A DNA stretch of 54,668 nt from a virus. Taxonomy: Duplodnaviria; Caudoviricetes. The stretch is from IMG/VR virus record IMGVR_UViG_3300048592_000644, positions 1 through 54,668 of that record; one strand, written 5' to 3'. Below the pieces are notes generated by a model. That model ran no database searches, was not told the DNA's origin, and saw only the letters and a list, made by a program, of their open reading frames with translations. Shown in pieces: positions 1,834 to 54,668 of the stretch (position 1 is the first letter of the stretch; each line of letters begins with the position of its first letter). The position numbers and the translations under genes are program-made.

Positions 1834-1888
1834 ATTAGCATCTCCTTTTACAAATCATGTGTCAAATGTCTGTCAAATGACAGACAAA

Positions 1889-5001: not shown

Positions 5002-5877
5002 CTACCGTACTGTGAAGATGGCCCCGGCCACGGCCGTACCAAATTGATTGAGATAACAACGGGGCAGTGAGTAGGTCGTACCAAACAACCAACCTGGGCT
5101 TGTTTCTTGGATAGTGGCTGTTTCATCACAAGCACTTGTCCACGCCTTTGCCCCGTCATTCAAAACCACATAAGTACCCCCCGCCAACATTTGCCGTGTT
5201 TGGGTTTGAATAGAACTGTCAGCCCAAAAACTATGTTGCACCCCGCCAAAGAACTGAGTGCGAGTGGTCAATACGGTTTCAGCCTGATTTAACTTATCTT
5301 GTGCCGCCAAACCTTGAACATCCAAAGGGGACATAGCCAAGATAGACTGAACTACCGCCCGGCCTTTGGTGCGGTCGCCGCTTTTTTCAGCATCGGCTAA
5401 CTGAGTGTAATAGCCGAACAATACCTGCATTTCTGCGGTAACGGTTACAGGCGGGGCATAGGAAACGGGTGGTTGGTTGACGGCCGGTACACCCCCGCTA
5501 TAGTTTGGTGGTGGAGCATACCCCCCGCCCACGGCCGGGGCTTGATACTGTTGAGGGGGAGTGTAGGGGGTGTTGGATTGGTAGTAATAATCCATTGTGG
5601 TATTCGTGGTATTGCCCCACAAACCAGTACGCAACCCCAAATTACCAACGGCGTGACTGGCTTCACCCACGATAGGCAACCAATTGTTTCCTACTTGAGT
5701 TTGGGATTTAGTGAAGGCCGTAGGCACTACCCAAACCAGCATGAATACCACAACTGCGGCCACAACACACATGCCGATAAGGTAATTCACGGCCGCTTTG
5801 GCGTTCATGGGGCGCAAATTCCACGCCACATAACCGGCAATACCAAAAATAATGAGGGTCAAAAAAAACGGGGTCAT
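5002..5877 (-). CDS. membrane protein with Pro/Tyr-rich linker and extracytoplasmic domain
   Basis: Two N-terminal TM helices, P/Y/Q-rich linker, C-terminal domain with two Cys; AGGAGATGC RBS. Confidence 0.7.
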   Translation of the reverse strand: MTPFFLTLIIFGIAGYVAWNLRPMNAKAAVNYLIGMCVVAAVVVFMLVWVVPTAFTKSQTQVGNNWLPIVGEASHAVGNLGLRTGLWGNTTNTTMDYYYQSNTPYTPPQQYQAPAVGGGYAPPPNYSGGVPAVNQPPVSYAPPVTVTAEMQVLFGYYTQLADAEKSGDRTKGRAVVQSILAMSPLDVQGLAAQDKLNQAETVLTTRTQFFGGVQHSFWADSSIQTQTRQMLAGGTYVVLNDGAKAWTSACDETATIQETSPGWLFGTTYSLPRCYLNQFGTAVAGAIFTVR

Positions 5878-5910
5878 ACAAGCATCTCCTTTGCTAGAAA
5901 TTCAGTTACA

Positions 5911-6186: not shown

Positions 6187-6194
6187 AAACCCCT

Positions 6195-6257
6195 AGTTTA
6201 GCAATGTGGTACAAAATTGGTCAAATGATTGCCTAATTTTAACCACATGAATAGAAT
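6195..6257. promoter_or_regulatory. back-to-back divergent sigma70 promoters with inverted-repeat spacers
   Basis: Plus TTGCCT(6229-6234)-17-TAGAAT(6252-6257); minus TTGACC(6219-6224)-18-TAAACT(6195-6200); both spacers contain AATTTT..ACCACAT. Confidence 0.65.
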
Positions 6258-6330
6258 ATCGGCTTAGGAGATGCTTTTATGAACAATCAAACGAAATACC
6301 CCTTTAGTTTTCTAAAAGGAGATGCCACCA

Positions 6331-6885
6331 ATGCAGGAAACAAGTGATTATATTTATTCTTTCGGGAAAACACTTCCTACTATCTCCCCCAAAGAACAAG
6401 AAGTTCTTGAGCAAGTCCGAAATATTAGCTTTGAAAGGGCGTTAAGTTCCTTCACAAATAAAGGGCATGACCCTCTCTCTTACACCCTAGTAACTCACGA
6501 AAAGGTTGTATGGCGCACTGAGATATTGATTGACTTTCGGGGGTTTAGTCGGCCGGTTGATTATCTCTACAAACCAACACCGCCCCCAACCAAAGAACGC
6601 CACAGTTTCACCTATCTTAGCCTTAGCATGTTTTTGGCTAACCCCTCAATCCTGCCGCTTAATGGGCAGTTAATCATGCCACCAGAGTATCTAAATCAAT
6701 CCCCTGTGCCAGAAGAAATAGGGATGCAATATTTTAATCTTCTCTCGCATGAACGGCCTAATCGCCCTAAAGACATAGTTCTGCATAGAAAAACTTACAG
6801 GGTTGGTATGATGCACTCTTGTTCCTTTTCGTTGGGCGAAGAGGTTTATTATTTATCTTGTTTTGCTTTTCAGAGGAGCGAGTAA
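6331..6885 (+). CDS. hypothetical protein
   Basis: ORF 6322-6885; ATG at 6331 is properly spaced from AAGGAGATGC. Confidence 0.65.
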   Translation: MQETSDYIYSFGKTLPTISPKEQEVLEQVRNISFERALSSFTNKGHDPLSYTLVTHEKVVWRTEILIDFRGFSRPVDYLYKPTPPPTKERHSFTYLSLSMFLANPSILPLNGQLIMPPEYLNQSPVPEEIGMQYFNLLSHERPNRPKDIVLHRKTYRVGMMHSCSFSLGEEVYYLSCFAFQRSE

Positions 6886-7483: not shown

Positions 7484-7969
7484 TTAGAGAGTAAAAAACT
7501 CTTTTGAGTTTGTATCAAATTCAAATTTATTCCCTTCAAAAACGTAGACAGGGTGGCCTTCCTCTGATAACCCACCATCAAGCATTGCCAACTCTTGAGC
7601 CATAACTTCTAATGCTTCCCGCCATCCCAACTTTTGCCCGGCCGGGTGCGTGGTCAAAAATTGATACCGTGCATCTAAATAAAAAGAGGTTTTATCTTGA
7701 ACGCTAACGTTAATTACATCTTCTAATTTACCAGCTAACCAATCTTGACCAAACTTCTCACCATCAAAATCAACAATTTCTAAGCCGTTGTCAAAATGAA
7801 ATTTGGCGATGGCTTTGGCGGTTGCTTCAACCGTTCCATAAGCGGCAAATTGTTCTGAGGTGGAACTGTTGGCAAGTGCGCTATCTAACATCTCTGAGGC
7901 GAATTGGTAAGGGTTATATGTACGGGTATCAACGGCAACTACAACGGGGCTAACATTTTTATCGGTCAT
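7484..7969 (-). CDS. hypothetical protein
   Basis: 161-aa acidic ORF with AGGAGATGC RBS, downstream of a consensus promoter. Confidence 0.7.
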   Translation of the reverse strand: MTDKNVSPVVVAVDTRTYNPYQFASEMLDSALANSSTSEQFAAYGTVEATAKAIAKFHFDNGLEIVDFDGEKFGQDWLAGKLEDVINVSVQDKTSFYLDARYQFLTTHPAGQKLGWREALEVMAQELAMLDGGLSEEGHPVYVFEGNKFEFDTNSKEFFTL

Positions 7970-8055
7970 GGTGCATCTCCTATGCTGAATGTGTGTTTAA
8001 TTAAATTATAAAAGCCAGTTGGAAAATTGTTTTACTTCGTTAAGTTATAAAGCTA

Positions 8056-8084
8056 ATTATAGGCGGTTTGCGTTACTTTGTCAA
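8056..8084 (-). promoter_or_regulatory. consensus sigma70 promoter with GTAACGCAAA box
   Basis: TTGACA(8079-8084)-17-TATAAT(8056-8061), followed by TAGCTTTATAACTTAA. Confidence 0.85.
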
Positions 8085-10452: not shown

Positions 10453-11046
10453 TTAGTTTTCTATTAACTCTAAATCTTGGAAGGTGTAAGAGAAATGGTG
10501 GGCTTCATCTGCGGGATTGTGTAAGTAGTTAATGAGCCGCCACTTACTGGTATCCCATGCCGGAAAGACTGACAGAGGAAAGACAGACTTATCCCCCTGC
10601 ACCACCGTATCTACTGCGGTTAGATACAGGTGTGTGGCGATTGGTAAAAACGCCTCATAAATTGCCGCTCCCCCCGCAATGATTATCTCCCCATCATACC
10701 GGCCGCATACTTGAGCAATATCTAAGGCATGGGTCACACTACTGGCAGAAATAAACCCCGGCTTGTAATAATCCTTTCGTTCACTCATTAAGATGGCCGT
10801 CCGGCCGGGCAACGGGTGGAAATGGGGCTGGAACTCCACCAAAATATTCCCATGATGTTGATTAACAATTTTCCCCAGATAAGGCTTAGGTAATGATTCG
10901 GCTGTTTTGCGCCCCATAATAACGGGTTTCCCCATTGTTATGGCCCGGAAACGTTTTAGGTCATTTGGTAAGTGCCAGGGCAGTTGTCCATTTTGCCCTA
11001 TGGCCCCATTCTTTGAGATGGCCGCCACAATTGATATTTTCATCAC
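10453..11046 (-). CDS. folA: dihydrofolate reductase
   Basis: AIGQNGQLPWHLPNDLKRFRAITMGKPVIMGRKT, PLPGR, IAGGAAIY; near thyA. Confidence 0.95.
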   Translation of the reverse strand: MMKISIVAAISKNGAIGQNGQLPWHLPNDLKRFRAITMGKPVIMGRKTAESLPKPYLGKIVNQHHGNILVEFQPHFHPLPGRTAILMSERKDYYKPGFISASSVTHALDIAQVCGRYDGEIIIAGGAAIYEAFLPIATHLYLTAVDTVVQGDKSVFPLSVFPAWDTSKWRLINYLHNPADEAHHFSYTFQDLELIEN

Positions 11047-11420
11047 TTCCCCTTTCGCCGTGTGCGAATCTCAAAATACCCCTGTAAATGTGGGTACTCT
11101 GACATAATCTTTCGGGCATAAAAAGCCCCATAGGAATTATTTATTTTCCACTTGTCCCCTGATGTGCGTATAGCACCACGCCGGAGGCTTTCCATATAAA
11201 ACTGTATGCTCATATGCCCAACACCCGCATTAAAGTCATCTTGTACCATGTGGACAAGGTTTTTATAAACATGAGGGTTGAGCATATGGAAAGCCTCAAA
11301 TCGTTCCTTCCGTGTTTGCGGCCGCACCTCTTTGGGTAATTGTTTCAATGGCTCAAAGTCTAGGGTGAAGCGAAGCTGTACAGTTTGGTCAATATCATCT
11401 GGGTCAATCAGGTTATTCAT
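11043..11420 (-). CDS. hypothetical phage protein
   Basis: 125-aa ORF with AGGAGATGC RBS, coupled to folA. Confidence 0.7.
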   Translation of the reverse strand: MNNLIDPDDIDQTVQLRFTLDFEPLKQLPKEVRPQTRKERFEAFHMLNPHVYKNLVHMVQDDFNAGVGHMSIQFYMESLRRGAIRTSGDKWKINNSYGAFYARKIMSEYPHLQGYFEIRTRRKGK

Positions 11421-11429
11421 AGCATCTCC

Positions 11430-12224
11430 TTAAACTGCTACAGGGGCTTTAATCGCCGGGTGGGGATTGTAGCCAGACAAAACAATATCATCATAAACAA
11501 AATCAAAAATATCATATCTGCGAGTTAACTTAACCGTTGGGAGCGGCCGTGGCTCACGGTCTAATAATTGATTAACTTGAGAGAGATGGTTTAGGTAAAT
11601 ATGAGCATCCCCCAGGGTATGAATGAACTCCCCCGGCCGGTATCCCGTCACATTGGCAACCAACAGAGTTAAGAGGGCATAACTGGCAAGATTAAACGGC
11701 ACTCCCAGAAAAGCATCTGCACTGCGTTGGTACAACTGGCAAGATAAACGATTGGTGGTGGAAACATAGAACTGAAAGAGGCAATGACAAGGGGGCAAGG
11801 CCATTTGGTCAATTTCCCCCACGTTCCATGCGGAAACAACGTGTCGGCGGGAATGTGGGTTGTCAATCAGGCCATTAACCAGTTCGGTTATTTGGTCTAC
11901 GGTTCGCCCATCGGCCCCGGCCCATGAACGCCATTGTTTGCCATATACTGGCCCCAACTCCCCCACCTCATCTGCCCACTCATTCCAAATAGATACCCCA
12001 TTCTCTTTGAGGTAAGCAATATTTGTTTCGCCTTTCAAAAACCAAAGTAGTTCGTGAACAATGGACTTAAAGTGTACTTTTTTAGTGGTGAGAAGCGGAA
12101 AAGAGGTGCTAAGGTCGAAACGCATCTGATACCCAAAGGTGCTAACTGTTCCCGTTCCTGTGCGGTCACTCTTTTGCTCCCCATTTTTGAGGATGTGCCA
12201 TAAGAGGTCGTGGTATTGCTTCAT
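11430..12224 (-). CDS. thyA: thymidylate synthase
   Basis: [47 protein letters not shown]; 264 aa. Confidence 0.98.
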
Positions 12225-14827: not shown

Positions 14828-14869
14828 AATAGCATCTCTTAATAAGTATTATAACACACCTGTTGTAAC

Positions 14870-14913
14870 AAAAAAGAGGAAATTAGCCTTTTGACTGACT
14901 AATTTCCTCTTTT
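14870..14913 (-). terminator. intrinsic terminator ending the late operon
   Basis: aaaagaggaaattag...ctaatttcctctttt stem with T-runs. Confidence 0.8.
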
Positions 14914-37983: not shown

Positions 37984-40473
37984 TTAGGCGGTGACTTGTA
38001 CCCAACTGCCTTTTTGTGGCAATGGGCTAACCCGGCCGTTGTGTTCGCTAACATAGTAGTGCTTGGTATCCGTTGGGATAACATTGCTACCGCTAACGAT
38101 GTAATCTTGGTGCGGCCCGTCTAACAACATCGGCCGGAATACCCGGTGGGCAACCAATTCACGATTAACCACTAAGAGAGCCGGGAAAGAAGTGCCTAAT
38201 TTGGGGAACAGGTTGGTTTTGTAAATGGGCAAGCCTTTAATGCTACCCGCATAACCAGCCCCGTTCAGTGTGACCATACCGGGAGGCATAGGGTCATTGA
38301 ACCAGTTACCCAACACATCTGCCACAGAGTAAGAACACACAATGGCAGTGGCTTGATAGTTGCGCTCGTCAACCTTAACCCGCGCTCCACCAATGGCCCG
38401 TACTAAATCTTCTACGTCATCGGTGCTTGCAGACCATACCCCACCACGATTGCCGATAATGCTTTGAACGGCAGATAGGGCATGGTAGAAAATGGTTTCG
38501 TCAATCGTTTCCCGAATCCGAGAGATTAAGGAAAGGATGGAACGGGCGGTCGTGTCGTAGTTAATGGTCGAGATGGCATAAGCCTGAGCCTCGGCCGTAA
38601 CTTTGGTGGTTAAGCGCATGGCTTCAGTGGTGAGGGTCACAAAGTTTGTGAGGTTCTTACCAGAGCGAATGGCGTTGCCTTCACCGTTCCGTACCCGGTC
38701 ATACACATAATCAATTTCTAAGGCCAAAGGTAAAGCCCAAACATTGGCTGAACCATCTGGTTCCTCAGAGAGAATCATAATTTGCCCCAGGTCATGGTTG
38801 ATAATGTAATCATCTTGATAAACCAACGTGGTTGGCCCGGCCGTGTCCACTACGACAACAGAATCAATAACTACCGCTTTGTTGTCCAAGTTAACCCAGA
38901 CATCTTCGTCCGTCACCGCTACCGCTTCATTGGTCACAGTCACATAGCGGAGGGCATCGTCTTCGTAGGTTTCGTAGTAAATACGGGTGTCTGGGGTATC
39001 AATAACCCCAAAATCAAACACATTGGCCGCCACTAAGAGCGGGAAGGCTTGAGAGATAACAGCCCGCATGTAGCTGTAAGGGATGTTGAGGTCGGAGGTA
39101 GTGGATTCAGCATAGGCTTGAGCCTCTTTCTCCAAAGCCGCTTTATAAGTCTTGTCGTAATGAGCAAGGTATTGAGCGGTAAACACCTCAGCACGGTTTT
39201 TTGGCTTGCGGGGGTCAAAATGATTTTCAAGGTGAAGCGGGTTTTTCCGTTGGACAAAACTTTCTTCAAAAGCGTAAGAGGCCCGTGCAAACGCAGGTTG
39301 GCCGGTTTCGCTTTCAAAGGCAGTGCCGGAGTAGTTGACCCCTAACCCCCCCAAGTTTTGAGTAGCCATAGTAGCGGCGACTTTAGAGTACATAGAAACG
39401 TACTTCTTAATCACTTCGTTGGCTTCTTCAACGGTTTTGGGGTTTTCCGCTTTAATAGCGGCTGTCATTTGCTCATGCAATTCTTTGGCAAAGCGGGGTT
39501 TGGCTGTTTCGGATTCGATGTACTCACGGACTTGCCGGGTTTGGCTTTCTTGGCGAAGCTGTTCTAATTCGCGCATCCGTTGCTCAACGATAACGGTTAC
39601 ATCATCGTGGCTGTCGGCCCCTAACGCCTGAACCAACCCTTTTTGCCGTGCGGCTAAAGCCTCGGCAATGCGTTTTTGGTCGGCTTCTTTTTTCTCTTGT
39701 TCTTCTTTAATCTCTTGAAGAACTTCGGACTTTAATGACTTGCGCCGTTCCTCAGAGATTTGTTCAGCTTCACCGATAATGGCTTGATAAACAAGAGGGT
39801 AATCATTTTTCAACTGGTCTAAATTTTGTACGGCCGCTAAATCCTTGAGAGTAGGATTAGCCGGATTTGGAGGGGTAGGTACGGGCATTGGTTTGTTCTC
39901 CTGTTGCTGTTCAATAGCTTGGAAATTCTCTAACATGGCAATATTGGTAAAAGAAGCGTTGCTTACTAGGTCGAAGTTCATCAACTCTAGTTCCTCAACC
40001 TGCTCTATTGGTTCACCGTCCATGCTAATCTGCCGCCCCCACCCAGACCCAGATAAAGAGCCGGACGGGTACACTTTTGACTTCATAAGCATTAAGACGG
40101 ATTCACCAACCAAAGGGGTAGGAATAAGTGTTCCTACTAAGTGAACGGCACTGTGGCCGGGGAACTCTACGCTTTCCCCATACTCAAAGCGATTCCACTT
40201 AACAACGGTTTGCTTAAAATCCCGCTTAGAGGGGTGTTCAACCTCTCCCGTAAACTGCCCTGCTATCTCATTTGACCCATAGATATTTGACGGGTTGGCT
40301 GATAACTTGCGAAGGGCATTTTCTACCGCCTGTTGGGTGTAAATCCGGCGGTTGCGGTTAATTACGCCTACTACAATTGCATCTTTGATGCGAACAGTAG
40401 GCAAACCGTTCTCCTCTTTCAGAGAAAATTGGGATGGTTCAATGCTCTCTACTAATTTTTTTAGTTCGGACAT
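37984..40473 (-). CDS. fused prohead protease - scaffold - major capsid protein
   Basis: 829 aa: protease motifs NRNRRIY, GEVEHP, FDLVSNAS; coiled-coil middle; HK97-fold-like C-terminal half (RAVISQAFPLLVA, GSIKGLPIYKT). Confidence 0.85.
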   Translation of the reverse strand: MSELKKLVESIEPSQFSLKEENGLPTVRIKDAIVVGVINRNRRIYTQQAVENALRKLSANPSNIYGSNEIAGQFTGEVEHPSKRDFKQTVVKWNRFEYGESVEFPGHSAVHLVGTLIPTPLVGESVLMLMKSKVYPSGSLSGSGWGRQISMDGEPIEQVEELELMNFDLVSNASFTNIAMLENFQAIEQQQENKPMPVPTPPNPANPTLKDLAAVQNLDQLKNDYPLVYQAIIGEAEQISEERRKSLKSEVLQEIKEEQEKKEADQKRIAEALAARQKGLVQALGADSHDDVTVIVEQRMRELEQLRQESQTRQVREYIESETAKPRFAKELHEQMTAAIKAENPKTVEEANEVIKKYVSMYSKVAATMATQNLGGLGVNYSGTAFESETGQPAFARASYAFEESFVQRKNPLHLENHFDPRKPKNRAEVFTAQYLAHYDKTYKAALEKEAQAYAESTTSDLNIPYSYMRAVISQAFPLLVAANVFDFGVIDTPDTRIYYETYEDDALRYVTVTNEAVAVTDEDVWVNLDNKAVVIDSVVVVDTAGPTTLVYQDDYIINHDLGQIMILSEEPDGSANVWALPLALEIDYVYDRVRNGEGNAIRSGKNLTNFVTLTTEAMRLTTKVTAEAQAYAISTINYDTTARSILSLISRIRETIDETIFYHALSAVQSIIGNRGGVWSASTDDVEDLVRAIGGARVKVDERNYQATAIVCSYSVADVLGNWFNDPMPPGMVTLNGAGYAGSIKGLPIYKTNLFPKLGTSFPALLVVNRELVAHRVFRPMLLDGPHQDYIVSGSNVIPTDTKHYYVSEHNGRVSPLPQKGSWVQVTA

Positions 40474-40622
40474 TTGTTACATCCTCTTTTACGGAAACGC
40501 AGGTTACGCAAGTTCCGGGCGGCTCTCCTTAACAGGTCGGAGTTTGCTGGGTCGCGCAATGAAGCATCACCGTATATAGGTGAATCTGTGGTAGTAATTG
40601 TTTGGCTTGTTTTTTTCTTCAT
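40461..40622 (-). CDS. small Arg-rich protein (53 aa)
   Basis: ATG at 40622 after GAGAGG; RRAARNLRNLRFRKR and terminal CNKC; overlaps the capsid start. Confidence 0.45.
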   Translation of the reverse strand: MKKKTSQTITTTDSPIYGDASLRDPANSDLLRRAARNLRNLRFRKRGCNKCPN

Positions 40623-40654: not shown

Positions 40655-40698
40655 AAAAAAGCGGTCTGCAAGCGGAAAAATTTCCACTCGCAGACCGC
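40655..40698 (-). terminator. intrinsic terminator/attenuator upstream of capsid gene
   Basis: 17-bp stem GCGGTCTGCGAGTGGAA/TTCCGCTTGCAGACCGC (two G-U pairs on the minus strand) plus TTTTTT. Confidence 0.8.
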
Positions 40699-40730
40699 AG
40701 TATGTTACGGGGGTCTATTGCGATGCCTTG

Positions 40731-40759
40731 AATATACAAGATTCGCTGTAATATGTCAA
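40731..40759 (-). promoter_or_regulatory. sigma70 promoter upstream of capsid gene
   Basis: TTGACA(40754-40759)-17-TATATT(40731-40736); the -10 lies inside a near-copy of the TTGAAYRTTCAA palindrome. Confidence 0.7.
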
Positions 40760-46132: not shown

Positions 46133-47791
46133 TCAAACATTATCAAAACCAGTTTGTATGTCTTTTTTAAGGCTTATAATTGCCGTCTCAGGGGCAAGAG
46201 AAGCCATTAAACAGTAGTTTTCGGCATGGGCAAAGTGGTCGGCTTCCGTTTCAATATAAACGCTCCGGCCGTTCTTTATTTGCCTCAGTGGTGCTTTTAG
46301 TTGTGAATAATAGCGGGGAATGGAATCAGCATTGCCCGGCAAAGCGTTCTCTCTGGCTCTAAATCTGGAATAGGTGAGGTCGAGGGTACGGGTGCGGTCG
46401 GCGACAACTATCATATCTTCCTCATTCCACTCAACTGAAGCCACACCCCTCAACCCATCGGGGCTGGTGTGGTAACGGCAAAGCCAAACCCGCCCCCGGC
46501 CGTATTGCGCCTGTATCCCCCGCACCATATTTGTTTCCGGGCCTATGTCGAATACTGCCCGTTTAACCTTGTAGACGCTCATAAGGAGCGGAATATCAGA
46601 AGGTTGGGCTTCTGTGGCACACAGTAAAGGTCGTTTGCCTTGCTCATTTAATGGGGCGCGAATAATGACATGAAGCACCTTGCCCACGTCCACTCCCATT
46701 AAATTACCGCCTCCGGCCGGGCCGGGGAGATAACCCATTTTACAGGCGTTCAAATCCTCATCGGTTAGACGGCCACCTCTCGGAGAGTAGGGTAATCCTA
46801 AATCCTGATTCCAACATTCACGGATTTTAGATTCATCAAACGATTGTAAGGCTTGCACCATCTCTTTAAGGGGGCTACGGGGGTAGCAAAGTTTGGTTGG
46901 GTGGAATCCCACTAAGTCATTGCTTCTACTTGGATACTTAGCCACCCACCGGCCGGGGGATTTGCGGTCTAAAATCTTGTGGCACTTTTTACAACAGCAA
47001 AGATACTGGTTAATCTTTTGCCCATACCACGCTATGGGCTGTTGGTCGTGATTCCAGTCAATGACCACATTGTTAATGTCTATCTCTTGCCATGTGCCAC
47101 AATGAGGGCATTTTAAGCACCATACTCTTTGGTCTGACTGCATCCATTCAGCATGGATACCAATAGAGTTAAACGTAGGGGTTGAGAGGCTTAGTTCCTC
47201 TGCTATAAGAGAGTGACCTAACCGTTTTGAAACTAAATCCTTTACCCTGGGGTTCATCACATCTACTTCATCCCTTACCCCTATATCGGCATCAATAGAG
47301 CGTAACTGAGAGGCGTTTCCCTCAGTATCAATCTTCCCCCCTCGAAAGGTTATGAAGTTGTCTCTCACCCGCTTCATGGTCACTCTGTCGGCCCCGCCCT
47401 CCCCGGCATTGACCACTAAAGAAGCGAGATAGGGACTGCTTTTTAAGGCTGGCCCAAAGCGTTTTTGTGAAAAATCGCTTACATCCCCATCGGTTGGCAT
47501 AACATAGAATACATCAGCCTTTCTTACGTCACATGACCACAAGGCACGATTAACCGCATATTCGCTAAGGCCAAGTTGCCCCCCTTTCATTAAGACAATC
47601 TTTTTGGCCTCACACTCATAAATGCCCCTTAAAAACTGGTGATGCTCCAGGTCAAAGGCAAGGTTAGGTTTAATGAGCGGCCGGTGCTTGATTGTCCATT
47701 CCAGCAAACCCATATATTTGCGGCCGGTCTGAATGTTTACCCGCCGCAGTTTTTCATCTAGTGCTGTAATGAGTTCGTGAGTTTGGTTCAT
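46133..47791 (-). CDS. terL: terminase large subunit (lambda GpA-like)
   Basis: MKGGQLGLSE, RDEVD, LSTPT, SDQRVW..KCPHCG, MGVDVG, DHFAHA. Confidence 0.93.
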   Translation of the reverse strand: MNQTHELITALDEKLRRVNIQTGRKYMGLLEWTIKHRPLIKPNLAFDLEHHQFLRGIYECEAKKIVLMKGGQLGLSEYAVNRALWSCDVRKADVFYVMPTDGDVSDFSQKRFGPALKSSPYLASLVVNAGEGGADRVTMKRVRDNFITFRGGKIDTEGNASQLRSIDADIGVRDEVDVMNPRVKDLVSKRLGHSLIAEELSLSTPTFNSIGIHAEWMQSDQRVWCLKCPHCGTWQEIDINNVVIDWNHDQQPIAWYGQKINQYLCCCKKCHKILDRKSPGRWVAKYPSRSNDLVGFHPTKLCYPRSPLKEMVQALQSFDESKIRECWNQDLGLPYSPRGGRLTDEDLNACKMGYLPGPAGGGNLMGVDVGKVLHVIIRAPLNEQGKRPLLCATEAQPSDIPLLMSVYKVKRAVFDIGPETNMVRGIQAQYGRGRVWLCRYHTSPDGLRGVASVEWNEEDMIVVADRTRTLDLTYSRFRARENALPGNADSIPRYYSQLKAPLRQIKNGRSVYIETEADHFAHAENYCLMASLAPETAIISLKKDIQTGFDNV

Positions 47792-47811
47792 GGTGCTTGA
47801 ATGTTCAAGGT

Positions 47812-48495
47812 TTATAACTCGAAGTCTACCACATCGGCCGTGGCCTCATTTTCTTGCGGTTGTCTGTTTGGTTCTAGTCGGCCGGTATCTACAAATTCAG
47901 CATCTATGATGGGGTTATTCCGCTCGGATTGACCACTGAACAATACCTCTACTAAATCAATATCATCTTCATCTGGGGTTGTGGCCTGGGCAGTAATAAG
48001 CGCAAGGTTTTTAATGTGTACCTGTAGTGCTTCATCGCTCATACCCGCCAAGCGGTGATTAATGTCAATTTGTCCGCTCACTAATTGATTAACTTGCCCA
48101 TCTAAGGTGGCTTGTATTCTAGTAATACTTTTCCAACGTTCCGGCGCACGGTTGTACAAAAGTACCTCCATTGCTCTTGTGTCGCCTGACATGCCCTTGA
48201 GATAAAGAGAATCTTCTATATCTTCTACCCGGCTATCTTTGGCCTTGTCAGCTAAAGCGGCAAAAATTGGGTTAGCCAATCGCTCTTTACGGTAGGTTGA
48301 GGTATCTATACCGCACAAAGCGCAAGCGGCATCTACCGTCTTGCAGTCATTAAGCAACTCAAGAAACATGGCTTGCATTTTAGGCGTGAATCTTTTTTTG
48401 CGCCCGGCCCCTTTCGGGTTTTTTGGTTTTTCTTTTTTCTCGCTTTTTTCACTTTGGGGGTCGGCCGGGGGAGTAGCTTTCTTTTTTCTAGGCAT
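47812..48495 (-). CDS. terS: terminase small subunit
   Basis: FLELL...VDAACALCGIDTST HTH, IEDSLY, LLYNRAPERW; directly upstream of terL. Confidence 0.8.
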   Translation of the reverse strand: MPRKKKATPPADPQSEKSEKKEKPKNPKGAGRKKRFTPKMQAMFLELLNDCKTVDAACALCGIDTSTYRKERLANPIFAALADKAKDSRVEDIEDSLYLKGMSGDTRAMEVLLYNRAPERWKSITRIQATLDGQVNQLVSGQIDINHRLAGMSDEALQVHIKNLALITAQATTPDEDDIDLVEVLFSGQSERNNPIIDAEFVDTGRLEPNRQPQENEATADVVDFEL

Positions 48496-48498
48496 GGG

Positions 48499-49203
48499 TT
48501 AAATCTCGTTTTCCTCAAAAGACACACTTTCGCCATGTTCTAGCCAGTCAGACAAACTTTCTTCCATGGCCATCTGTAACATTCTCACATTGCTCTTGAG
48601 GGTTTTCACATTAGCATCTATTTTAACTACGCTTACTGGTTGCCCGTCTATCACAAAACAGACTACGGCCGCCTCCTCATTTTTGGCTATTACCTCAGCT
48701 ACTTTCTTGCTCACTCTTTGGGCTATTTTTAGCACATCGGCTTTTAGCTTCATGCTTTCCCGCCCTTGCTCCACCCGTTGCTCTTGCATCATTTTCATTA
48801 TTTCTACGGTGGGATGCCGGAAAATATCTAGTTTGGCTAGGGTTAACTCTTGAGCGTCAATGATTTGTTTTAGCTTTTTCTTACTGGTTTTGCCATGAAC
48901 GGTGTTGAGGTTGTTTACTAAATTAAACTTCTCCTCTTTAGACAAGTTTCCGGCAAAAACATTGCAAACAATACTGTCATGGCCTAAATTCCCCCATTCA
49001 GTTATGCGGTGTCGGCCCCCAAGCACCTCATACCCATCCTCTTTCTTGAGTAAAGAGGGTAAGGTAACAGGGAGGCCAATACCCTCTAATTCAGATGATA
49101 GGCGTTGCCTTTGGCTATCATCCATCTCATTTGCGCTGAACTCACTCCAAGAAATGTTTTCTAATGGCACTTCATAAGTGCCAACATACTGTAACTTTGA
49201 CAT
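48499..49203 (-). CDS. ParB/Srx N-terminal domain protein
   Basis: ANEMD...L..EL..IG, YEVLGGRHR, NLNTVHG. Confidence 0.75.
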   Translation of the reverse strand: MSKLQYVGTYEVPLENISWSEFSANEMDDSQRQRLSSELEGIGLPVTLPSLLKKEDGYEVLGGRHRITEWGNLGHDSIVCNVFAGNLSKEEKFNLVNNLNTVHGKTSKKKLKQIIDAQELTLAKLDIFRHPTVEIMKMMQEQRVEQGRESMKLKADVLKIAQRVSKKVAEVIAKNEEAAVVCFVIDGQPVSVVKIDANVKTLKSNVRMLQMAMEESLSDWLEHGESVSFEENEI

Positions 49204-49263
49204 GATTTATTACCCCTTTCTTTTCAGGATAATTCATTTTAATATATTTGTCATCTTAACAAC

Positions 49264-49294
49264 AAAAAAAACACCTCGTCAGAGGTGTTTTTTT
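49264..49294. terminator. intrinsic terminator (bidirectional)
   Basis: aaaaaaaacacctc-gtca-gaggtgttttttt. Confidence 0.9.
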
Positions 49295-49408
49295 CTATTA
49301 ACTTAACTTCACCCTTAGTCATCGGAGATGCCTGGTCATGGGGCTTTTGCATAACCCGAACTTTTGGAGGTTCTTTAATGGGTTAAGTGACCTAACGACT
49401 AAAGGATA
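49264..49408 (-). ncRNA. candidate structured small RNA with anti-Shine-Dalgarno loops
   Basis: Promoter TTGACC-16-TATAAT (49415-49442), nested stems across 49312-49405, terminator at 49264-49294; unpaired GCAUCUCC and CUCC. Confidence 0.55.
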
Positions 49409-49414
49409 AATCTG

Positions 49415-49442
49415 ATTATACTTCGCTTTCGGGGTTGGTCAA
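49415..49442 (-). promoter_or_regulatory. sigma70 promoter for candidate sRNA
   Basis: TTGACC(49437-49442)-16-TATAAT(49415-49420). Confidence 0.6.
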
Positions 49443-49613
49443 CATGGTTTTGTTAGCGGCCGCAATTCTTTCTAAAACCGTTTGGCAATCCTGCATGACC
49501 TCACTTAGAATCTCGCTAAAGTACCGCTCATTACTTTCCCGCCTCTCCGCCATACCCGATACGATATTTTGTAATATCCAGGGAACGCCCTCTCGGTCTG
49601 CCCATTCCAGCAA
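49416..49613 (-). CDS. hypothetical protein (start uncertain)
   Basis: 65-aa ORF with TTG start and poor RBS; in frame with the upstream ORF across one TAG. Confidence 0.4.
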   Translation of the reverse strand: MLEWADREGVPWILQNIVSGMAERRESNERYFSEILSEVMQDCQTVLERIAAANKTMLTNPESEV

Positions 49614-49797
49614 AGCCCCAAACTATACCTTTCGCTCCCCATGTACGCAGGTGCGGTGCTGGTGATGGTTAAAGTAACTATGTCGAAACAAAGCCTCTAA
49701 GATGTTTCTTTGGGTGTCATTCAACACCCCGTCCCATAATTTCTTGTTCATATTAAGAGGGAGTGCCGGGTTTACCCGCCCGGCCGGGCTAATAAAA

Positions 49798-50061
49798 CTA
49801 CTCAGTGGCAGAAAGAGGGTTAAAGTCACGGTAAGACGAAAGGGGCAGTGCCTTTTCATCGTAATAATCAACTGTTTTCGCAAAGTATTTGTCGTGGACT
49901 TTAACATAGCAATCTGTTTGTGTACCCCACTGGAACTCCATACAGAAAAACCGTTGGGTAAAGCCGTATTCGTCGGAGTTCCAAGAGAGCGGGGGAAGTT
50001 GCCCTAAAGCATCAAACCATTGCTCCTCTGTAATTTCCTTAAAACCGTTTAGTTCGTTCAT
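49798..50061 (-). CDS. hypothetical protein
   Basis: EITEEQWFDALGQLPP..W...F.CME motif; AGGAGATGC RBS and own promoter. Confidence 0.7.
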   Translation of the reverse strand: MNELNGFKEITEEQWFDALGQLPPLSWNSDEYGFTQRFFCMEFQWGTQTDCYVKVHDKYFAKTVDYYDEKALPLSSYRDFNPLSATE

Positions 50062-50098
50062 AGCATCTCCTTTGTGAAGTGGTTAAGTTATAAAGCTA

Positions 50099-50127
50099 AT
50101 TGTAACAAAAACGTAACGCAAAAGCAA
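50099..50127 (-). promoter_or_regulatory. sigma70 promoter with inverted GTAACGCAAA box
   Basis: TTGCTT(50122-50127)-17-TACAAT(50099-50104), then TAGCTTTATAACTTAA identical to the 8056 promoter. Confidence 0.7.
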
Positions 50128-50129
50128 AC

Positions 50130-50155
50130 AAAAAGAGCCTATTTAGGCTCTTTTT
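50130..50155. terminator. intrinsic terminator
   Basis: aaaaagagcct-attt-aggctcttttt. Confidence 0.85.
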
Positions 50156-50185
50156 GGTAAGAAGTTTTGAGGTTAATAAAGCTAA

Positions 50186-50335
50186 TTAGCGTTTTGTGCC
50201 TTGTTTTTTACCACTTGGCTTTCCATCCCGGCCGAACAATGGCTTAACAAAGGTTCGTTTCCCGCCCCGGTGCTTGGATAAGCGGGGGTATGGGGCAAAA
50301 GTTGGTACACCTGCATAATCTTTTTCTACTAACAT
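50186..50335 (-). CDS. small basic protein (49 aa; absent from ORF track)
   Basis: AAGGAG RBS, then MLVEKDYAGVPTFAPYPRLSKHRGGKRTFVKPLFGRDGKPSGKKQGTKR*. Confidence 0.55.
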   Translation of the reverse strand: MLVEKDYAGVPTFAPYPRLSKHRGGKRTFVKPLFGRDGKPSGKKQGTKR

Positions 50336-50350
50336 GGTCACTTTCTCCTT

Positions 50351-50611
50351 TTATGAGTGGCTTAAATTGCGGGGCCAGAGTGCTTTTATTTTATCTTCTA
50401 GCTCATTGACCCTTGTTTCATCAAAACGCCCCTTGTAGGCTTGCCTACGGCGTAGGGCAAGCAGTTTTTGGGCATTGGTTAGGCGGGAGCGTATCTTTCT
50501 TACTGCTATCCCCCTACCCCGGCCGCCTTCCGGGAAAGGGATGGCACTAGCTTCATTAACCAGCTTGTCAACCAACTGAAGGATGTAAGCGGGTGTTCTC
50601 AGGGTACTCAT
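50351..50611 (-). CDS. hypothetical basic protein
   Basis: 86 aa, ATGA coupling. Confidence 0.6.
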   Translation of the reverse strand: MSTLRTPAYILQLVDKLVNEASAIPFPEGGRGRGIAVRKIRSRLTNAQKLLALRRRQAYKGRFDETRVNELEDKIKALWPRNLSHS

Positions 50612-51162
50612 TGCGCCCCGGCCGACACGTTAAGGTGCGCCTCAATAAAGGTCGCACACTCTAAGAATAGGCTGATTGAATTTAAGGCCATCACTTTGTC
50701 GTAATTGACATTGTAATATTCAATCAAATCAATAACTGAACATAGGCGGGAATAACCTTCCTTTCCTTCCCCATCGCTAATTGACATATCCCCGGCCGGT
50801 GAGAGTTGCGATAAGAAAATATCTTTTCCGGCTTTTTCCGTTAACCGTTCTGGGGTGCAGAAAAAGCGAAAGAAAGAACTTTCAGAACATCTTGCCATTT
50901 CTTGCCGTGCTGACTGCCGTTCATCTCGAATAACGATGGCTCGGCTTGTATGTTCAAGGGCAACCAGTTCTAACTCGCTTTGGTTTTCAGAGATAACAAC
51001 CTCTCCTAAGTTGGCATGGTACATCTCGTTAGGCATGGCACACCAAAGGGTACATTTATCCTGTTGGCTTGCCTTAACAAATAACAAGGCGTGGTAAGCC
51101 TGTTCATAGTACCCCGTTGTCTGGGGTTTATCTTCCTTCCAGTATGTTGCATAAAATAACAT
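50608..51162 (-). CDS. hypothetical protein
   Basis: ORF 50608-51168; ATG 51162 is spaced correctly from AGGAGATGC. Confidence 0.65.
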   Translation of the reverse strand: MLFYATYWKEDKPQTTGYYEQAYHALLFVKASQQDKCTLWCAMPNEMYHANLGEVVISENQSELELVALEHTSRAIVIRDERQSARQEMARCSESSFFRFFCTPERLTEKAGKDIFLSQLSPAGDMSISDGEGKEGYSRLCSVIDLIEYYNVNYDKVMALNSISLFLECATFIEAHLNVSAGAQ

Positions 51163-51234
51163 GGGCATCTCCTTTGGGTTATTGATTTATCTCAGCCTAA
51201 TAACTCAAGGCTATTAGACTGAGTAAGCCAATAA

Positions 51235-51711
51235 CTACCGGCCCCGGCCGCTACCAATACCTTTGGCAATTTCCCCTAAAACATCCCAAACATTTTCGCC
51301 TGGGCTTGGGTTTTCAAACAGGCCGGGAATGTCGTCATCCGGCACATAATCACCCTCAGAGGCTAATACTTCTAAACCAGCTTTAACATAACCATCTGGG
51401 TCAATTTCTGGGTCATCTTCATTGAAAAGCCAGTTATCTAAGGCTTCTTTCGCCATATGGCGAAGTTCGGCGTTGCTGGTTGGTACAGTCGTGCCACAAT
51501 CCCCATCGGCTGGCATGTTGCGCGGGGTAAAAGTTACGTCACTACCCTCACCATCAACCTCATAATAGGCTAACACTTTCTTGCCCAAAGCATACTTGGC
51601 AAAATCTTCGGCGGTTGGGTTATCAACAAAGCCTAATTCATTTGCTTGTAAAGCGAATAATGCGGCTTGTTTTTCTTCTACGGACAAGGTGGTGGCGGTT
51701 TTGGTACTCAT
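51235..51711 (-). CDS. hypothetical acidic protein
   Basis: 158 aa, D/E-rich, AGGAGATGC RBS. Confidence 0.7.
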   Translation of the reverse strand: MSTKTATTLSVEEKQAALFALQANELGFVDNPTAEDFAKYALGKKVLAYYEVDGEGSDVTFTPRNMPADGDCGTTVPTSNAELRHMAKEALDNWLFNEDDPEIDPDGYVKAGLEVLASEGDYVPDDDIPGLFENPSPGENVWDVLGEIAKGIGSGRGR

Positions 51712-51748
51712 GTTGCATCTCCTGGAATATAAAGGTTAATAAAAAAAA

Positions 51749-52018
51749 CTAATCTAAGTCCAAATAAGCACCCCAATCAGCAAGGGTCTTTGTGTTGGTT
51801 GGTTCAACTACGCCATCCTCACCTTCTACGGGTGTTAACTCTGAGACCACCCAATCTTTGCGGCTTTCTGTTTTGCCGTAAAAGGCGCAAACTTGAGCGA
51901 AGGTCATGTATTGGTGTTGGCGGAGTGATGGTTCAACGTTAAATGTTCCTTCCTCAGTCGGAACATCTTTAATAACTTTGTTAATTTCATATCGGTAGTC
52001 ATTCATTGTGTTGGTCAT
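51749..52018 (-). CDS. hypothetical protein
   Basis: 89 aa, AGGAGATGC RBS, first gene after a promoter. Confidence 0.7.
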   Translation of the reverse strand: MTNTMNDYRYEINKVIKDVPTEEGTFNVEPSLRQHQYMTFAQVCAFYGKTESRKDWVVSELTPVEGEDGVVEPTNTKTLADWGAYLDLD

Positions 52019-52056
52019 GTTGCATCTCCTAGCGGGTTAATTAAGTTATAGTGCCT

Positions 52057-52085
52057 ATTTTACGCTCTTTGTGTTACGCTGTCAA
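52057..52085 (-). promoter_or_regulatory. sigma70 promoter with GTAACACAAA box
   Basis: TTGACA(52080-52085)-17-TAAAAT(52057-52062), then TATAACTTAA. Confidence 0.8.
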
Positions 52086-52093
52086 TGGGTTTA

Positions 52094-52387
52094 TTAACCA
52101 ATTTCCCGTTTTGCTTTGAGTGCGGTTAACCCCGGCCGGTAGTGGAGTAGATACCATTCCGGCGGCCGGGGCATTTTTCTTCTGTGCGCTCCCCATGCCT
52201 CAGCCAACCGCTCATTAAAAATTTCGACTATGGCCTCTGAGAAGGGGTCTATAGGCTCAAAGCGACTACTATCAAGGATTCGCTCTATCTCATGTCTGGA
52301 AAGCGGTATTTGTTGTTGGACAACCAAACACTTTGCATCTTTTATCATTTCCCTTAGCTCTAAGAGAGTTACTTCCTCAGCTTTCAT
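52094..52387 (-). CDS. hypothetical protein
   Basis: ORF 52094-52435; likely start MKAEE after GGGGGAG. Confidence 0.55.
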   Translation of the reverse strand: MKAEEVTLLELREMIKDAKCLVVQQQIPLSRHEIERILDSSRFEPIDPFSEAIVEIFNERLAEAWGAHRRKMPRPPEWYLLHYRPGLTALKAKREIG

Positions 52388-52727
52388 ACTCCCCCTTCGC
52401 AATATCCAAAATAGCCTGATTAAACTCACTCTCACCTATTTCTTTGGCCTCAACCTTAGAAAATAATTTTTCCAGCAAAAGGGAATTTTTAGGGTTTTTG
52501 ATGCCGTTGACTAATTGCTCAAAGAGTGTAAACCCGTCAACCCATATAAGCAGGGATGGTTCTGATTCGGCTATGCCATGAAAAGCCCGTCTCAATTCCG
52601 ATGAAGCATCTATGATGCAGAGGGATGAATAGCGACTGTATATTGGTGCGTCATTAAGATAAAGAGCCAATACACCGCCAATTGTTAAGCCAATACGCTC
52701 AAGGCAGTTGTTAATAGGTGGGTGCAT
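52377..52727 (-). CDS. hypothetical protein
   Basis: 116-aa ORF in operon. Confidence 0.55.
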   Translation of the reverse strand: MHPPINNCLERIGLTIGGVLALYLNDAPIYSRYSSLCIIDASSELRRAFHGIAESEPSLLIWVDGFTLFEQLVNGIKNPKNSLLLEKLFSKVEAKEIGESEFNQAILDIAKGEYES

Positions 52728-52728
52728 A

Positions 52729-52983
52729 TTACTTATCCCTATCTAACCCTATTTGCTTGTGTAACATCTGGTACTGTTGTTTCTCCACCTGTTTTAAGTA
52801 GTAATAAAACTCAGTAGAGAGAAGGTCGTTAATGGCCTCGCTTGCCTCTTTGCCGCTTAGGTCACAATCTGGCAAAACATTAAAGATGCCAATAGCGGCA
52901 TCTATCAACCCCACCACCTTACCCTCGTCGCTTCGGCAATCTGTTCTAGTTATGATTGAACCCTTTGTTTTTTCTTCACTCAT
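52729..52983 (-). CDS. hypothetical protein
   Basis: 84 aa, GGGGTG RBS. Confidence 0.55.
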   Translation of the reverse strand: MSEEKTKGSIITRTDCRSDEGKVVGLIDAAIGIFNVLPDCDLSGKEASEAINDLLSTEFYYYLKQVEKQQYQMLHKQIGLDRDK

Positions 52984-53509
52984 TGTTCACCCCACCTTTA
53001 TCTTGAATATTCAAACTTAATTCAATCTTCATAGAATCCCGTAGCCGGATGGGGAACTCGGCGGCCGGGAACTCGTGGTGAAGGCGATTGACCAGCACTT
53101 CCTCAACCGTTTTTACCGCTAATTGATTAGTGAGGTGAAACAGGCCCCGGCACACAATAGTCGGCCGGGTAAGGCTTGCCCTTTTCGTTACCTCGAAAAC
53201 AGGGGAGGCCATATCAACCCTGATGCCGCTCATGCCTAAAAAATGCAACTGGTAAGGCTCAGGCCGTGCGGCCGATGAAACAACAGTGTTCACTAAGTTA
53301 GGGTTACAAAAGGCAATATCAAAGTTATGCCCCACCCACCCGTCCTTTTGCGGAAAAAGAGTGCTTAACTTGTGCCGGGCGTTGCTTCTTACGTCCTTTT
53401 CGTCGGCCGAATGTAAGGCATGAAGGGAGATGTATAACCTCATACCATATTTTTCCTCTCGACGTGCGGCACTCAGTACCATGCCATAGAGGTTGCGTTC
53501 TTTGCTCAT
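52976..53509 (-). CDS. hypothetical protein
   Basis: 177 aa, ATGA coupling to the ClpP-like gene. Confidence 0.6.
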   Translation of the reverse strand: MSKERNLYGMVLSAARREEKYGMRLYISLHALHSADEKDVRSNARHKLSTLFPQKDGWVGHNFDIAFCNPNLVNTVVSSAARPEPYQLHFLGMSGIRVDMASPVFEVTKRASLTRPTIVCRGLFHLTNQLAVKTVEEVLVNRLHHEFPAAEFPIRLRDSMKIELSLNIQDKGGVNNE

Positions 53510-54219
53510 ACTTCATCTCCCCCATAACGTGCCTCACGCGCCTCCATAACACCCCCACCTTTTGCTAAGGGTACATTACTGGCTTGGCGGGGGGGTATCC
53601 CACCAATCACGGTATCCACCATCCCATAGGCCAACGCTTCCCCGCCCGTCAGCCATGTTTCCCGTTCCAGCATATCTGCGATTTTTTCACGGGTAACATT
53701 AGAGCGGAGGGCATACAGGTCAATCGCCTGTTGGTAAACGTACTCAATGACCTTTGTGGTGTCCTTTATCTCCCGATATGTGCCTAAGATTAAGCCTCGT
53801 GGGGGATGGATAAGAAACAAGCTGTTACTGGTGGCAAAACGTTGGTTACAGACCAAATAAATGAGCGTTCCGGCACTTGCCACCAAACCCTCATTAAACG
53901 CCCAAATTTCGTTAGTTGTGAGGCTGTTTAATTCACTGGCAAAAGATAGGGCAATTAACGCCTCTCCCCCGGCCGTGTTGATATGCAGTCTAATGGGGAT
54001 GTCTACGTTCAGTTGGTATTCAGCCTTAAACCGTTCTATGCGGCGGTCGGCCTCAATCAACTCCTTTCGTAAACTCAAAATTGTTTCCGGGGTGATGTCC
54101 TGGTAAAAGAAAATATCAACCCCGCTCCCACCACTTATAGGGGCTGGTGGAGGGGCAATCGGTGAATCAGAATCGTTATTGTGCGGGGGAACTAAACTAC
54201 TTAATTTAGGTAAATTCAT
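53506..54219 (-). CDS. ClpP-family (S14) protease
   Basis: IRLHINTAGGE, GLVASAGTLI (catalytic Ser), FLIHPP (His), RETWLTGGEALAYGMVDTVI. Confidence 0.9.
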   Translation of the reverse strand: MNLPKLSSLVPPHNNDSDSPIAPPPAPISGGSGVDIFFYQDITPETILSLRKELIEADRRIERFKAEYQLNVDIPIRLHINTAGGEALIALSFASELNSLTTNEIWAFNEGLVASAGTLIYLVCNQRFATSNSLFLIHPPRGLILGTYREIKDTTKVIEYVYQQAIDLYALRSNVTREKIADMLERETWLTGGEALAYGMVDTVIGGIPPRQASNVPLAKGGGVMEAREARYGGDEV

Positions 54220-54234
54220 TGTGCCTCTTTTGTG

Positions 54235-54654
54235 TTAAATGCTGATGCCTATTCTTGCCTCTGGGTAATCCCGGCAAGCCTGTAAATAACTCTCGACAAA
54301 GCCGATTAACCCTTTATAGGTACTTGCTATGCCAATATCTTTTTGTAAGGGGATAAAGCGGTCTGGGTGTGACTTTAGTTCGTTCAGTGCTTTTTCTAAG
54401 GTTGGTACAAGTTTCTCTGGCCGCCCCCAACCATCCCTTTCATACAAGCCCCATGTGACTTCCTGCAAACCGCTTTCTATGACCATTTCTTTAACGCAGG
54501 GGGTTAGGTGGTGTTGCCATACTCTTCGGCCGGGGGATTTGACATTACTTTCCGGCACAAAAAACGATATACCAAAAAACACAGGTATTCTACGGGGCGG
54601 GGTAGGATTAAATAGGGGCAATTGTTTGGCCTCTGGCAAGGTGTCAGTTTCCAC
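54235..54654 (-). CDS. hypothetical phage protein
   Basis: 139 aa, AGGAG RBS with GTG start; LEKALNELKSHPDRF...YLQACRDYPEA. Confidence 0.65.
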   Translation of the reverse strand: METDTLPEAKQLPLFNPTPPRRIPVFFGISFFVPESNVKSPGRRVWQHHLTPCVKEMVIESGLQEVTWGLYERDGWGRPEKLVPTLEKALNELKSHPDRFIPLQKDIGIASTYKGLIGFVESYLQACRDYPEARIGISI

Positions 54655-54668
54655 AGGTAGCTCCTAAA

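Follow-up and report, generated by a model that had tools for sequence, protein, structure and literature searches.

What is a short promoter-to-terminator unit doing directly ahead of the late genes of an uncultured phage, when its predicted RNA contains the exact complement of a ribosome-binding motif shared by ten of the phage's non-virion genes? The unit occupies positions 49264–49442 on the minus strand of IMG/VR record IMGVR_UViG_3300048592_000644, a stretch of 54,668 bp that was analysed as a whole, is termed the window below, and represents about 52% of the estimated genome. The minus strand carries nearly all of the window's genes, and the unit lies where the early genes give way to the packaging genes. 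Our leading answer, drawn from the sequence and held tentatively at less than even odds, is that the unit encodes a minus-strand small RNA (sRNA) that would pair with the shared motif and repress the ten genes.

The shared ribosome-binding motif

The 8-mer GGAGATGC occurs 11 times in the window against 0.82 copies expected, and none of 100 shuffled sequences reaches 11. Ten of these copies are ribosome-binding sites (RBS) located 1–5 nt ahead of the ATG that opens a called open reading frame (ORF), and all ten share the 9-mer AGGAGATGC. The ten sites lie outside the packaging, head and tail block, and the virion genes use varied sites (GGAGAA, GGAGAG, GGAGG and GGAGT). With the usual 3′ end of 16S rRNA, which we take to apply in this host, only the GGAG of the motif and the UG that comes next could pair. 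This means that the fixed A and C of the motif are not explained by rRNA pairing.

The eleventh copy, at 49324–49331 on the plus strand, is the template of GCAUCUCC in the predicted RNA. An initial annotation of this DNA had reported a perfect complement of the motif at ten RBS, and the ten sites and the antisense copy bear it out. About 0.002 chance copies of the complement would be expected in the 146-nt unit (0.82 × 146/54668), and a fair figure is nearer 0.05 once any intergenic position is allowed to have drawn notice.

Near-motifs are found at two further starts, GGAGATGT at 14524 and AGAGATGC at 14827. Before the gene that starts at 14827 there is, on the minus strand (14876–14909 and 14835–14843), a terminator and then TGTTATAAT, a perfect extended -10 element. 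In the divergent region 6187–6330, two plus-strand copies of the motif lie 51 nt apart, and the first opens a very short ORF ahead of gene 6331–6885.

Promoter and terminator of the unit

The unit begins with TTGACC-16-TATAAT (49442–49415, minus strand), which matches 11 of the 12 consensus positions. Minus-strand sites with at least 11 of 12 matches number only four in the 54.7 kb of the window (at 52085, 49442, 40759 and 8084), and all four sit in gaps or at gene ends. The -10 hexamer is followed after six bases by a second, -10-like element. The pattern TAHAAT-N6-TATNNY has 8 matches in the window against 1.15 expected, four of them at strong promoters, and three other strong minus-strand promoters show TATAAC where the focal one has TATCCT. 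An early promoter cassette can be recognised at 8044–8084, 50087–50104 and 52045–52085 (minus strand), in which the -10 and six bases are followed by TATAACTTAAY; TAGCTT between the promoter elements is common to two of the three cassettes.

The predicted promoter and terminator are spaced 142 nt apart. The terminator hairpin, CACCUC-UGAC-GAGGUG lengthened by A-U pairs and followed by U8, reads as a terminator in both directions, and at 49264 it is predicted to stop all early transcription. The first late gene begins 60 nt beyond it. The promoter, the RNA of about 145 nt and the strong terminator described in the initial annotation are therefore recovered in the sequence, the RNA being now predicted at about 140–145 nt, and so is the placement at the early/packaging boundary, ahead of the ParB-like, TerS and TerL genes. 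We consider it very likely that the segment is a genuine transcription unit of the gene strand.

Fold of the RNA and accessibility of the complement

The minimum free energy (MFE) fold of the minus-strand RNA from 49409 to 49264 has an energy of -42.9 kcal/mol (z -4.85), which none of 200 shuffles equals. With the terminator removed, the minus strand retains a z of -2.21 (6 of 200 shuffles fold as well), compared to -0.45 for the plus strand (61 of 200). The strand asymmetry of the fold is real but moderate, and it fits the presence of three G-U pairs in the closing helix. The outer 12-bp stem and the inner stems GGUCA/UGACC, UAACCC/GGGUUA and GAAC/GUUC, first drawn by eye, are all present in the MFE fold, and CUCC is exposed in the apical loop as had been claimed. 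GCAUCUCC, which had been described as unpaired, is accessible: opening it costs 1.4 kcal/mol, the unpaired probabilities of its bases range from 0.16 to 0.85, and the MFE fold places two weak G-C pairs across it.

The RNA belongs to no known class, as a covariance-model scan of the whole window against Rfam returned no match at the gathering cut-off. The best match below threshold reached 26 bits against a cut-off of 60 and was driven by the terminator. A covariance model of the RNA core matched only the RNA itself in the window and 80 distant loci. A riboswitch or attenuator was set aside, as the alternative to the terminator (by eye) has just 5 bp and no Rfam family matched.

Predicted pairing with start regions

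The start regions of the window, 69 in number, were ranked as targets by duplex energy plus the opening costs of both partners. The ten motif genes take ranks 1–5, 7–9, 13 and 26, so that eight of the nine best predicted targets carry the motif, and the near-motif GGAGATGT takes rank 6. Ten start regions reach -8 kcal/mol or lower, compared to a median of 2 and a maximum of 8 for 42 dinucleotide shuffles of the RNA, none of which reaches ten. In several targets, CAUG of the RNA pairs with the start codon as well.

Two-site pairing with the leaders of the transcripts from 52085 and 50100 is predicted at -31 and -29 kcal/mol. The single-stranded linker between the core and the terminator, AGUUAAGUUAAUAG, is predicted to pair with two early leaders at -16.9 and -14.0 kcal/mol, values in the top 1% and the top 5% among 2732 windows, although it does not stand out in a wider control. 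Predictions by plain duplexfold were discarded, because for long sequences they consisted of unrealistically long duplexes.

A proposed antisense RNA and its known counterparts

The promoter, the terminator, the strand-specific fold, the exact complementarity and the accessibility are seen in the sequence; production of the RNA, its pairing in vivo and repression through that pairing are what we infer. Host sigma-70 polymerase would start at the promoter within the 3′ end of the last early ORF, and would stop at the terminator shared with the early operon. The resulting RNA of about 140 nt would form a rod closed by a helix of 12–15 bp, leaving CUCC in the apical loop and GCAUCUCC in an internal loop, 5 nt downstream of a CAUG. 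The exposed bases could then pair with the AGGAGAUGC-N(1–5)-AUG start regions of the ten non-virion genes and block binding of the 30S subunit. Translation of the early gene set would fall with rising levels of the RNA, or once it forms the 5′ leader of late transcripts.

An RNA of this general kind is already known. The c4 RNA of phages P1 and P7 is, in the available parts of the source, a phage antisense RNA whose exposed loops block an RBS (PMC12197685). Like the focal RNA, it is phage-encoded and folded, and its loop bases pair with the RBS region of the phage's own mRNA, stopping translation (PMC12197685, same parts). This immunity RNA blocks the icd/ant ribosome-binding region, is cut from the transcript that it controls, and acts on one operon via two sites. 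The focal RNA, in contrast, would be transcribed from a promoter of its own and would reach ten genes at scattered positions by way of a single 8–9 nt motif, and it has no Rfam match to c4.

RNAIII and RsaE of S. aureus use C-rich loops with unpaired CUCC-type motifs as short seeds for repression at the RBS of multiple targets. These are host RNAs that read the generic Shine-Dalgarno core, whereas the focal RNA would owe its specificity to four additional bases (AUGC), the mark of one phage gene class. What would be new is that a single phage RNA acts on a regulon marked by a motif.

Start-associated sequences of cluster K phages

Cluster K mycobacteriophages provide the closest parallel to the motif itself. 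According to the available text of the original description, they carry a conserved, asymmetric 13-bp start-associated sequence (SAS) containing AGGAG and reaching past the part that can pair with 16S rRNA, located 3–7 bp before the starts of 11–19 non-structural genes and in one orientation, and four K1 phages have a single reverse copy away from gene starts (PMC3203893). In that text, Pope et al. (2011) did not decide between an RNA and a protein as the reader of the SAS and suggested a phage- or host-encoded partner (PMC3203893). Its role was still called unknown in 2024 (PMC11373665) and was said in 2025 to need experimental verification (PMC12699233), in the portions of those papers that are available. 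A literature search whose reach did not extend to supplements or to the 2019 ZoeJ RNA-seq paper (cited in PMC12699233) found no antisense RNA partner for the SAS.

Like the window motif, the SAS is longer than the Shine-Dalgarno core and sits shortly before non-structural starts in one orientation, and it has a lone reverse copy. It differs in sequence (GGGATAGGAGCCC compared to AGGAGATGC), in host and in phage lineage, and in the window the reverse copy lies inside a promoter-to-terminator unit. The SAS is therefore an analogue and not a member of the same family. In Mycobacterium phage Anaya, the reverse SAS lies in a 385-bp gap after a terminator, and on the gene strand CCUCCUAUC occupies the apical loop of a hairpin (171-nt fold, z -4.29).

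Between gp96 and gp97 lies a gap (Anaya 59716–60059, which is locus L083 34717–35060; further loci L085–L100) that looks like a conserved small-RNA locus, with a promoter-like pair followed by two hairpins with compensatory changes, the second of which holds the reverse SAS in its loop in 8 of the 17 phages sampled. Some cluster K records annotate an ORF across it. The sample comprised 17 of 182 matching records, picked from a spread listing and not at random. Across these 17 phages, a promoter-like TTGnCG...TAGACT is conserved upstream, with TAGACT invariant. The loop is exactly CCTCCTATCCC in eight of them and a C/U-rich variant in four. A consensus fold of 11 phages (Yuna, Bryler, Hurricane, SirPhilip, Oscar and Marshawn were left out, as their loop region is unaligned) shows compensatory changes in 10 of 33 pairs. 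By analogy, the cluster K case lifts the idea of an RNA that pairs with the start motif from odd to plausible.

Evidence against repression by the RNA

Several observations weigh against the proposed antisense RNA. The predicted pairing is just 8–9 bp, and the base before GGAG is C in the template copy of the RNA and A in all ten targets. All eight bases of GCAUCUCC are open together in only 0.10 of the ensemble, and it is here that the earlier description of this segment as unpaired falls short. The z of the core fold is just -2.2. Shuffled RNAs obtain up to 8 strong targets, and two looser measures of pairing are matched by 4 and 2 of the 42 shuffles. The two-site pairing with leaders does not stand out once all 45-nt windows of the transcriptome are scored alike, and a local-alignment scan of the locus against the window found no likeness to leaders above the null level.

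Comparison with other phages adds to these points. The one overlapping public contig (204 bp, covering 49335–49538), among three small contigs from a single DNA run, is 98% identical, and it leaves the RNA unchanged; its four differences all lie upstream of the promoter. In cluster K, the loop motif is absent from five of the 17 sampled phages, and Krueger keeps 14 exact SAS while its loop matches 9 of 13 bases, with no SAS variant that fits the loop. Part of cluster K has thus kept the motif and lost the seed, which had been named beforehand as an outcome that would refute the idea. Finally, a position right before the late operon is needed by a gate for late transcription and not by an sRNA gene. 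The trans-acting sRNA put forward in the initial annotation, silencing an early regulon, keeps its promoter, terminator, fold and accessible 8-mer, and motif starts are its best predicted targets; what that proposal had overlooked is the gate design.

A possible gate for late transcription

The unit could instead be a gate of the lambda pR′-6S-tR′ type, where polymerase reaches the late genes only after a phage antiterminator, either protein or RNA, has acted. We regard this as a strong rival, only somewhat less probable than the antisense RNA and, like it, short of even odds. The 140-nt RNA would then be a terminated by-product or a loading site, and its match to the motif a relic or chance. 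The two designs are compatible, as a terminated leader, or the 5′ end of a late transcript, would still expose the complement.

The lambda arrangement consists of a strong constitutive promoter, a short terminated RNA, antitermination by Q, and a -10-like element at the transcript start, and lambdoid late promoters carry a sigma-dependent pause element at that position. The focal unit likewise has a strong promoter and then a terminator within about 200 nt, directly ahead of late genes, with the -10-like TATCCT 6 nt past the -10. It precedes ParB-like, TerS and TerL genes, whereas the lambda gate precedes lysis genes. In the 60-nt gap before the first late gene, the only promoter-like site is ATGACA-17-TATCCT (49254–49226), which matches at 9 of 12 positions. 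The TerL itself is of the lambda gpA type. However, the -10-like element is also found after three promoters of ordinary early genes, with no terminator near.

The late block contains further strong terminators. A second promoter-terminator pair lies inside it at 40759–40661, where an 11/12 promoter is followed about 70 nt later by a terminator of 15–17 bp, and the next gene begins 33 nt on without a promoter. A third terminator, at 27909–27891, has a gene 20 nt beyond it. Late transcription must therefore pass strong terminators, which is the purpose of processive antitermination. The RNA from 40655–40759 would consist of a 27-nt C-rich 5′ tail and a hairpin, and could be a second small RNA or a second gate.

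Distant relatives point partly in the same direction. Of 62 distant TerL relatives, three carry a consensus promoter with a terminator ahead of TerL on the sense strand; the antisense strand shows no such pair in any of them. In two of the loci, L010 (4131–4285) and L077 (4500–4700), whose TerL proteins are 46% and 43% identical, a promoter, an RNA of 85–125 nt and a terminator lie 1.4–1.9 kb upstream of TerL, as in the window. L010 has no second promoter after the terminator, which suits a gate, while L077 has a second 11/12 promoter right after it, which suits a free-standing RNA gene better. The RNAs of these two loci have no sequence likeness to the focal RNA, and their k-mer complements match no ribosome-binding motif.

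The main points against a gate concern its missing partner and the motif. Lambda has Q, whereas no Q-like or other antiterminator family was matched in Pfam or PHROGs by eight early-side ORFs at 49416–52018 (five called proteins, two small ORFs and an ORF with an in-frame TAG), nor by the ParB-like protein and the small ORF 40461–40622. PHROG scans of 30 further proteins and two feature or structure look-ups found none either; this negative covers the scanned proteins of the window, itself about 52% of the genome. A gate would also leave the exact 8-mer complement unexplained, with its roughly 0.002 chance copies expected in the unit, and to our knowledge lambda 6S RNA has no regulatory complement. 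We also discounted a put-like cis antiterminator: transcripts from upstream would contain it as well, and the terminator would then have no purpose.

Other explanations

Three further explanations are less probable than a gate. One, which appears improbable, is that the RNA is a separately transcribed sRNA with another role, such as a host target or protein binding, and that the complement is a coincidence or the remnant of an inverted leader. The promoter, fold and terminator would be the same, and the lack of an Rfam match fits this as well. The plus strand does resemble a start region (motif, spacer and ATG, with TATTAACTTAAC upstream), like the UAUAACUUAAC leaders, and an inverted copy of a leader would leave such a layout. 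However, the likeness to leaders is not significant in an unbiased scan. A separate count of TAACTTAA gave 6 copies where 3.26 are expected, a number equalled in 11 of 100 shuffles. Moreover, whatever its origin, an expressed RNA with an accessible exact complement of ten strong start regions should pair with them.

It is also rather improbable that no separate transcript exists. The region would then do no more than supply the early operon beginning near 50100 with its 3′ untranslated end and terminator, and the promoter-like hexamers would be there by chance. Sites with at least 9 of 12 matches are no commoner in 47500–54668 than in shuffles (8 compared to 10.8 expected), and the promoter hexamers overlap coding sequence. 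Against this, sites with at least 11 matches are rare on the gene strand, as noted above, and the focal promoter has the -10/N6/TAT element in common with three others. Even as a 3′ untranslated end, the RNA segment would be made and its complement exposed.

Very improbable is a plus-strand gene for a 23-amino-acid peptide with the minus-strand RNA as its cis-antisense, in the style of a type I toxin-antitoxin: the ORF at 49338–49409 exists as the initial annotation had pointed out, and the ten other motif copies all serve as working RBS, but from the terminator end at 49295 to the motif there is no plus-strand promoter, the one plus-strand site farther upstream (49221–49248, 9/12) runs into the bidirectional terminator, the N6 spacing is outside the N1–N5 of the ten true sites, the motif copy departs from AGGAGATGC in having C instead of A before GGAG, the short peptide MGLLHNPNFWRFFNGLSDLTTKG lacks a hydrophobic span of the type I toxin kind, and the plus-strand fold is at shuffle level.

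Genomic context and coordinates

The late block runs from 49203 down to about 15000 and encodes ParB-like, TerS, gpA-type TerL, head-morphogenesis and tail proteins and a tape measure (Pfam/PHROGs). Its flanks encode a thymidylate synthase (11430–12224, minus strand), a ClpP-like protease, a transglycosylase/peptidase and many proteins of no known function. The ClpP-like protease (53506–54219, minus strand) also matches head maturation protease families and is distant from the head genes. TAG is an ordinary stop in 17 of the 67 called genes, and the in-frame TAG of ORF 49416–49751 may be a nonsense break, a read-through site or chance; with X placed at the TAG, this ORF has no family match. 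ARAGORN found no tRNA or tmRNA.

Relatives of the window are distant. No match was obtained by blastn of 48400–50200 against phage records, by the ParB-like protein, TerL and a 24-mer against viral contigs, or by a two-sequence TerL alignment and a 22-mer against metagenome contigs. A search of genome contigs gave a sole TerL match, at 26% identity. By tblastn of TerL against phages, the best identity is 25.5% among 25 listed records, and all 948 records are below 60%. The closest relatives, both encoded on one contig, are a ParB-like protein with 56% identity and a TerL with 79% identity (P0002 and P0004). The window's own proteins are also encoded on a 114-kb contig. The coordinates of all features are collected in Table 1.

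Table 1. Features of the focal unit, its neighbours and the ten motif-bearing start sites in the window
Feature	Position	Strand	Basis or remark
-35 hexamer TTGACC	49437..49442	-	promoter score; within last codons of upstream ORF
-10 hexamer TATAAT	49415..49420	-	promoter score; includes stop codon of upstream ORF
-10-like TATCCT, six bases past the -10, at transcript start	49403..49408	-	pattern count
Predicted RNA, about 140–145 nt	49264..49408	-	5′ end placed from the -10, 3′ end from the U tract
Outer helix, 5′ arm CCUUUAGUCGUU	49394..49405	-	MFE fold
CUCC in 8-nt apical loop of GAAC/GUUC	49366..49369	-	unpaired probability 0.92
GCAUCUCC, exact complement of shared RBS motif, in internal loop	49324..49331	-	motif count, accessibility
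Outer helix, 3′ arm GAUGACUAAGGG	49312..49323	-	folds of both strands; three G-U pairs, so pairing on this strand only
Single-stranded linker AGUUAAGUUAAUAG	49296..49308	-	complements the UAUAACUUAAY start of two early leaders
Intrinsic terminator, hairpin and U8 (U7 on other strand)	49264..49295	both	also closes early operon starting near 50100
ORF behind GGAGATGC-N6-ATG, 23 amino acids	49338..49409	+	expression judged unlikely
ORF upstream of unit, 42 + 65 codons, in-frame TAG at 49625–49623	49416..49751	-	3′ end carries promoter
First gene after terminator, ParB-like N-terminus	48499..49203	-	PHROG
TerS	47812..48495	-	family match
TerL, lambda gpA type	46133..47791	-	family match
Second promoter-terminator pair, TTGACA-17-TATATT, 15–17 bp hairpin and U6	40655..40759	-	fold z -7.55
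AGGAGATGC RBS of gene 51749–52018	52022..52029	-	motif count
RBS of gene 51235–51711	51715..51722	-	motif count
RBS of gene 50608–51162	51165..51172	-	motif count
RBS of gene 49798–50061	50063..50070	-	motif count
RBS of gene 11043–11420	11422..11429	-	motif count
RBS of gene 7484–7969	7973..7980	-	motif count
RBS of gene 6331–6885	6318..6325	+	motif count
RBS of short ORF starting 6279	6267..6274	+	motif count
RBS of gene 5002–5877	5882..5889	-	motif count
RBS of gene 820–1833	1838..1845	-	motif count

Implications for phage gene timing

If the unit is a gate, the lambda design would extend to a very distant, uncultured phage lineage with genomes of about 110 kb, which would be useful and unsurprising. 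If it is instead an antisense RNA, a broader and more speculative idea arises, one that we consider unlikely but worth stating: phage start-associated sequences in general may be addresses read by a phage antisense RNA, which would shut off the early non-virion set at the early-to-late switch. The window would provide the clearest example, with an independent second example in the single reverse SAS of cluster K1 phages. Such a reader would explain why some phages keep an identical RBS motif, longer than needed, across a whole gene class, and it would bear on the question of the cluster K start-associated sequences, which in the available text of PMC3203893 and PMC11373665 has stood open since 2011. 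Phages would also be seen to time their genes by an RNA-based shut-off of early expression on the scale of a regulon, alongside the ways already known.

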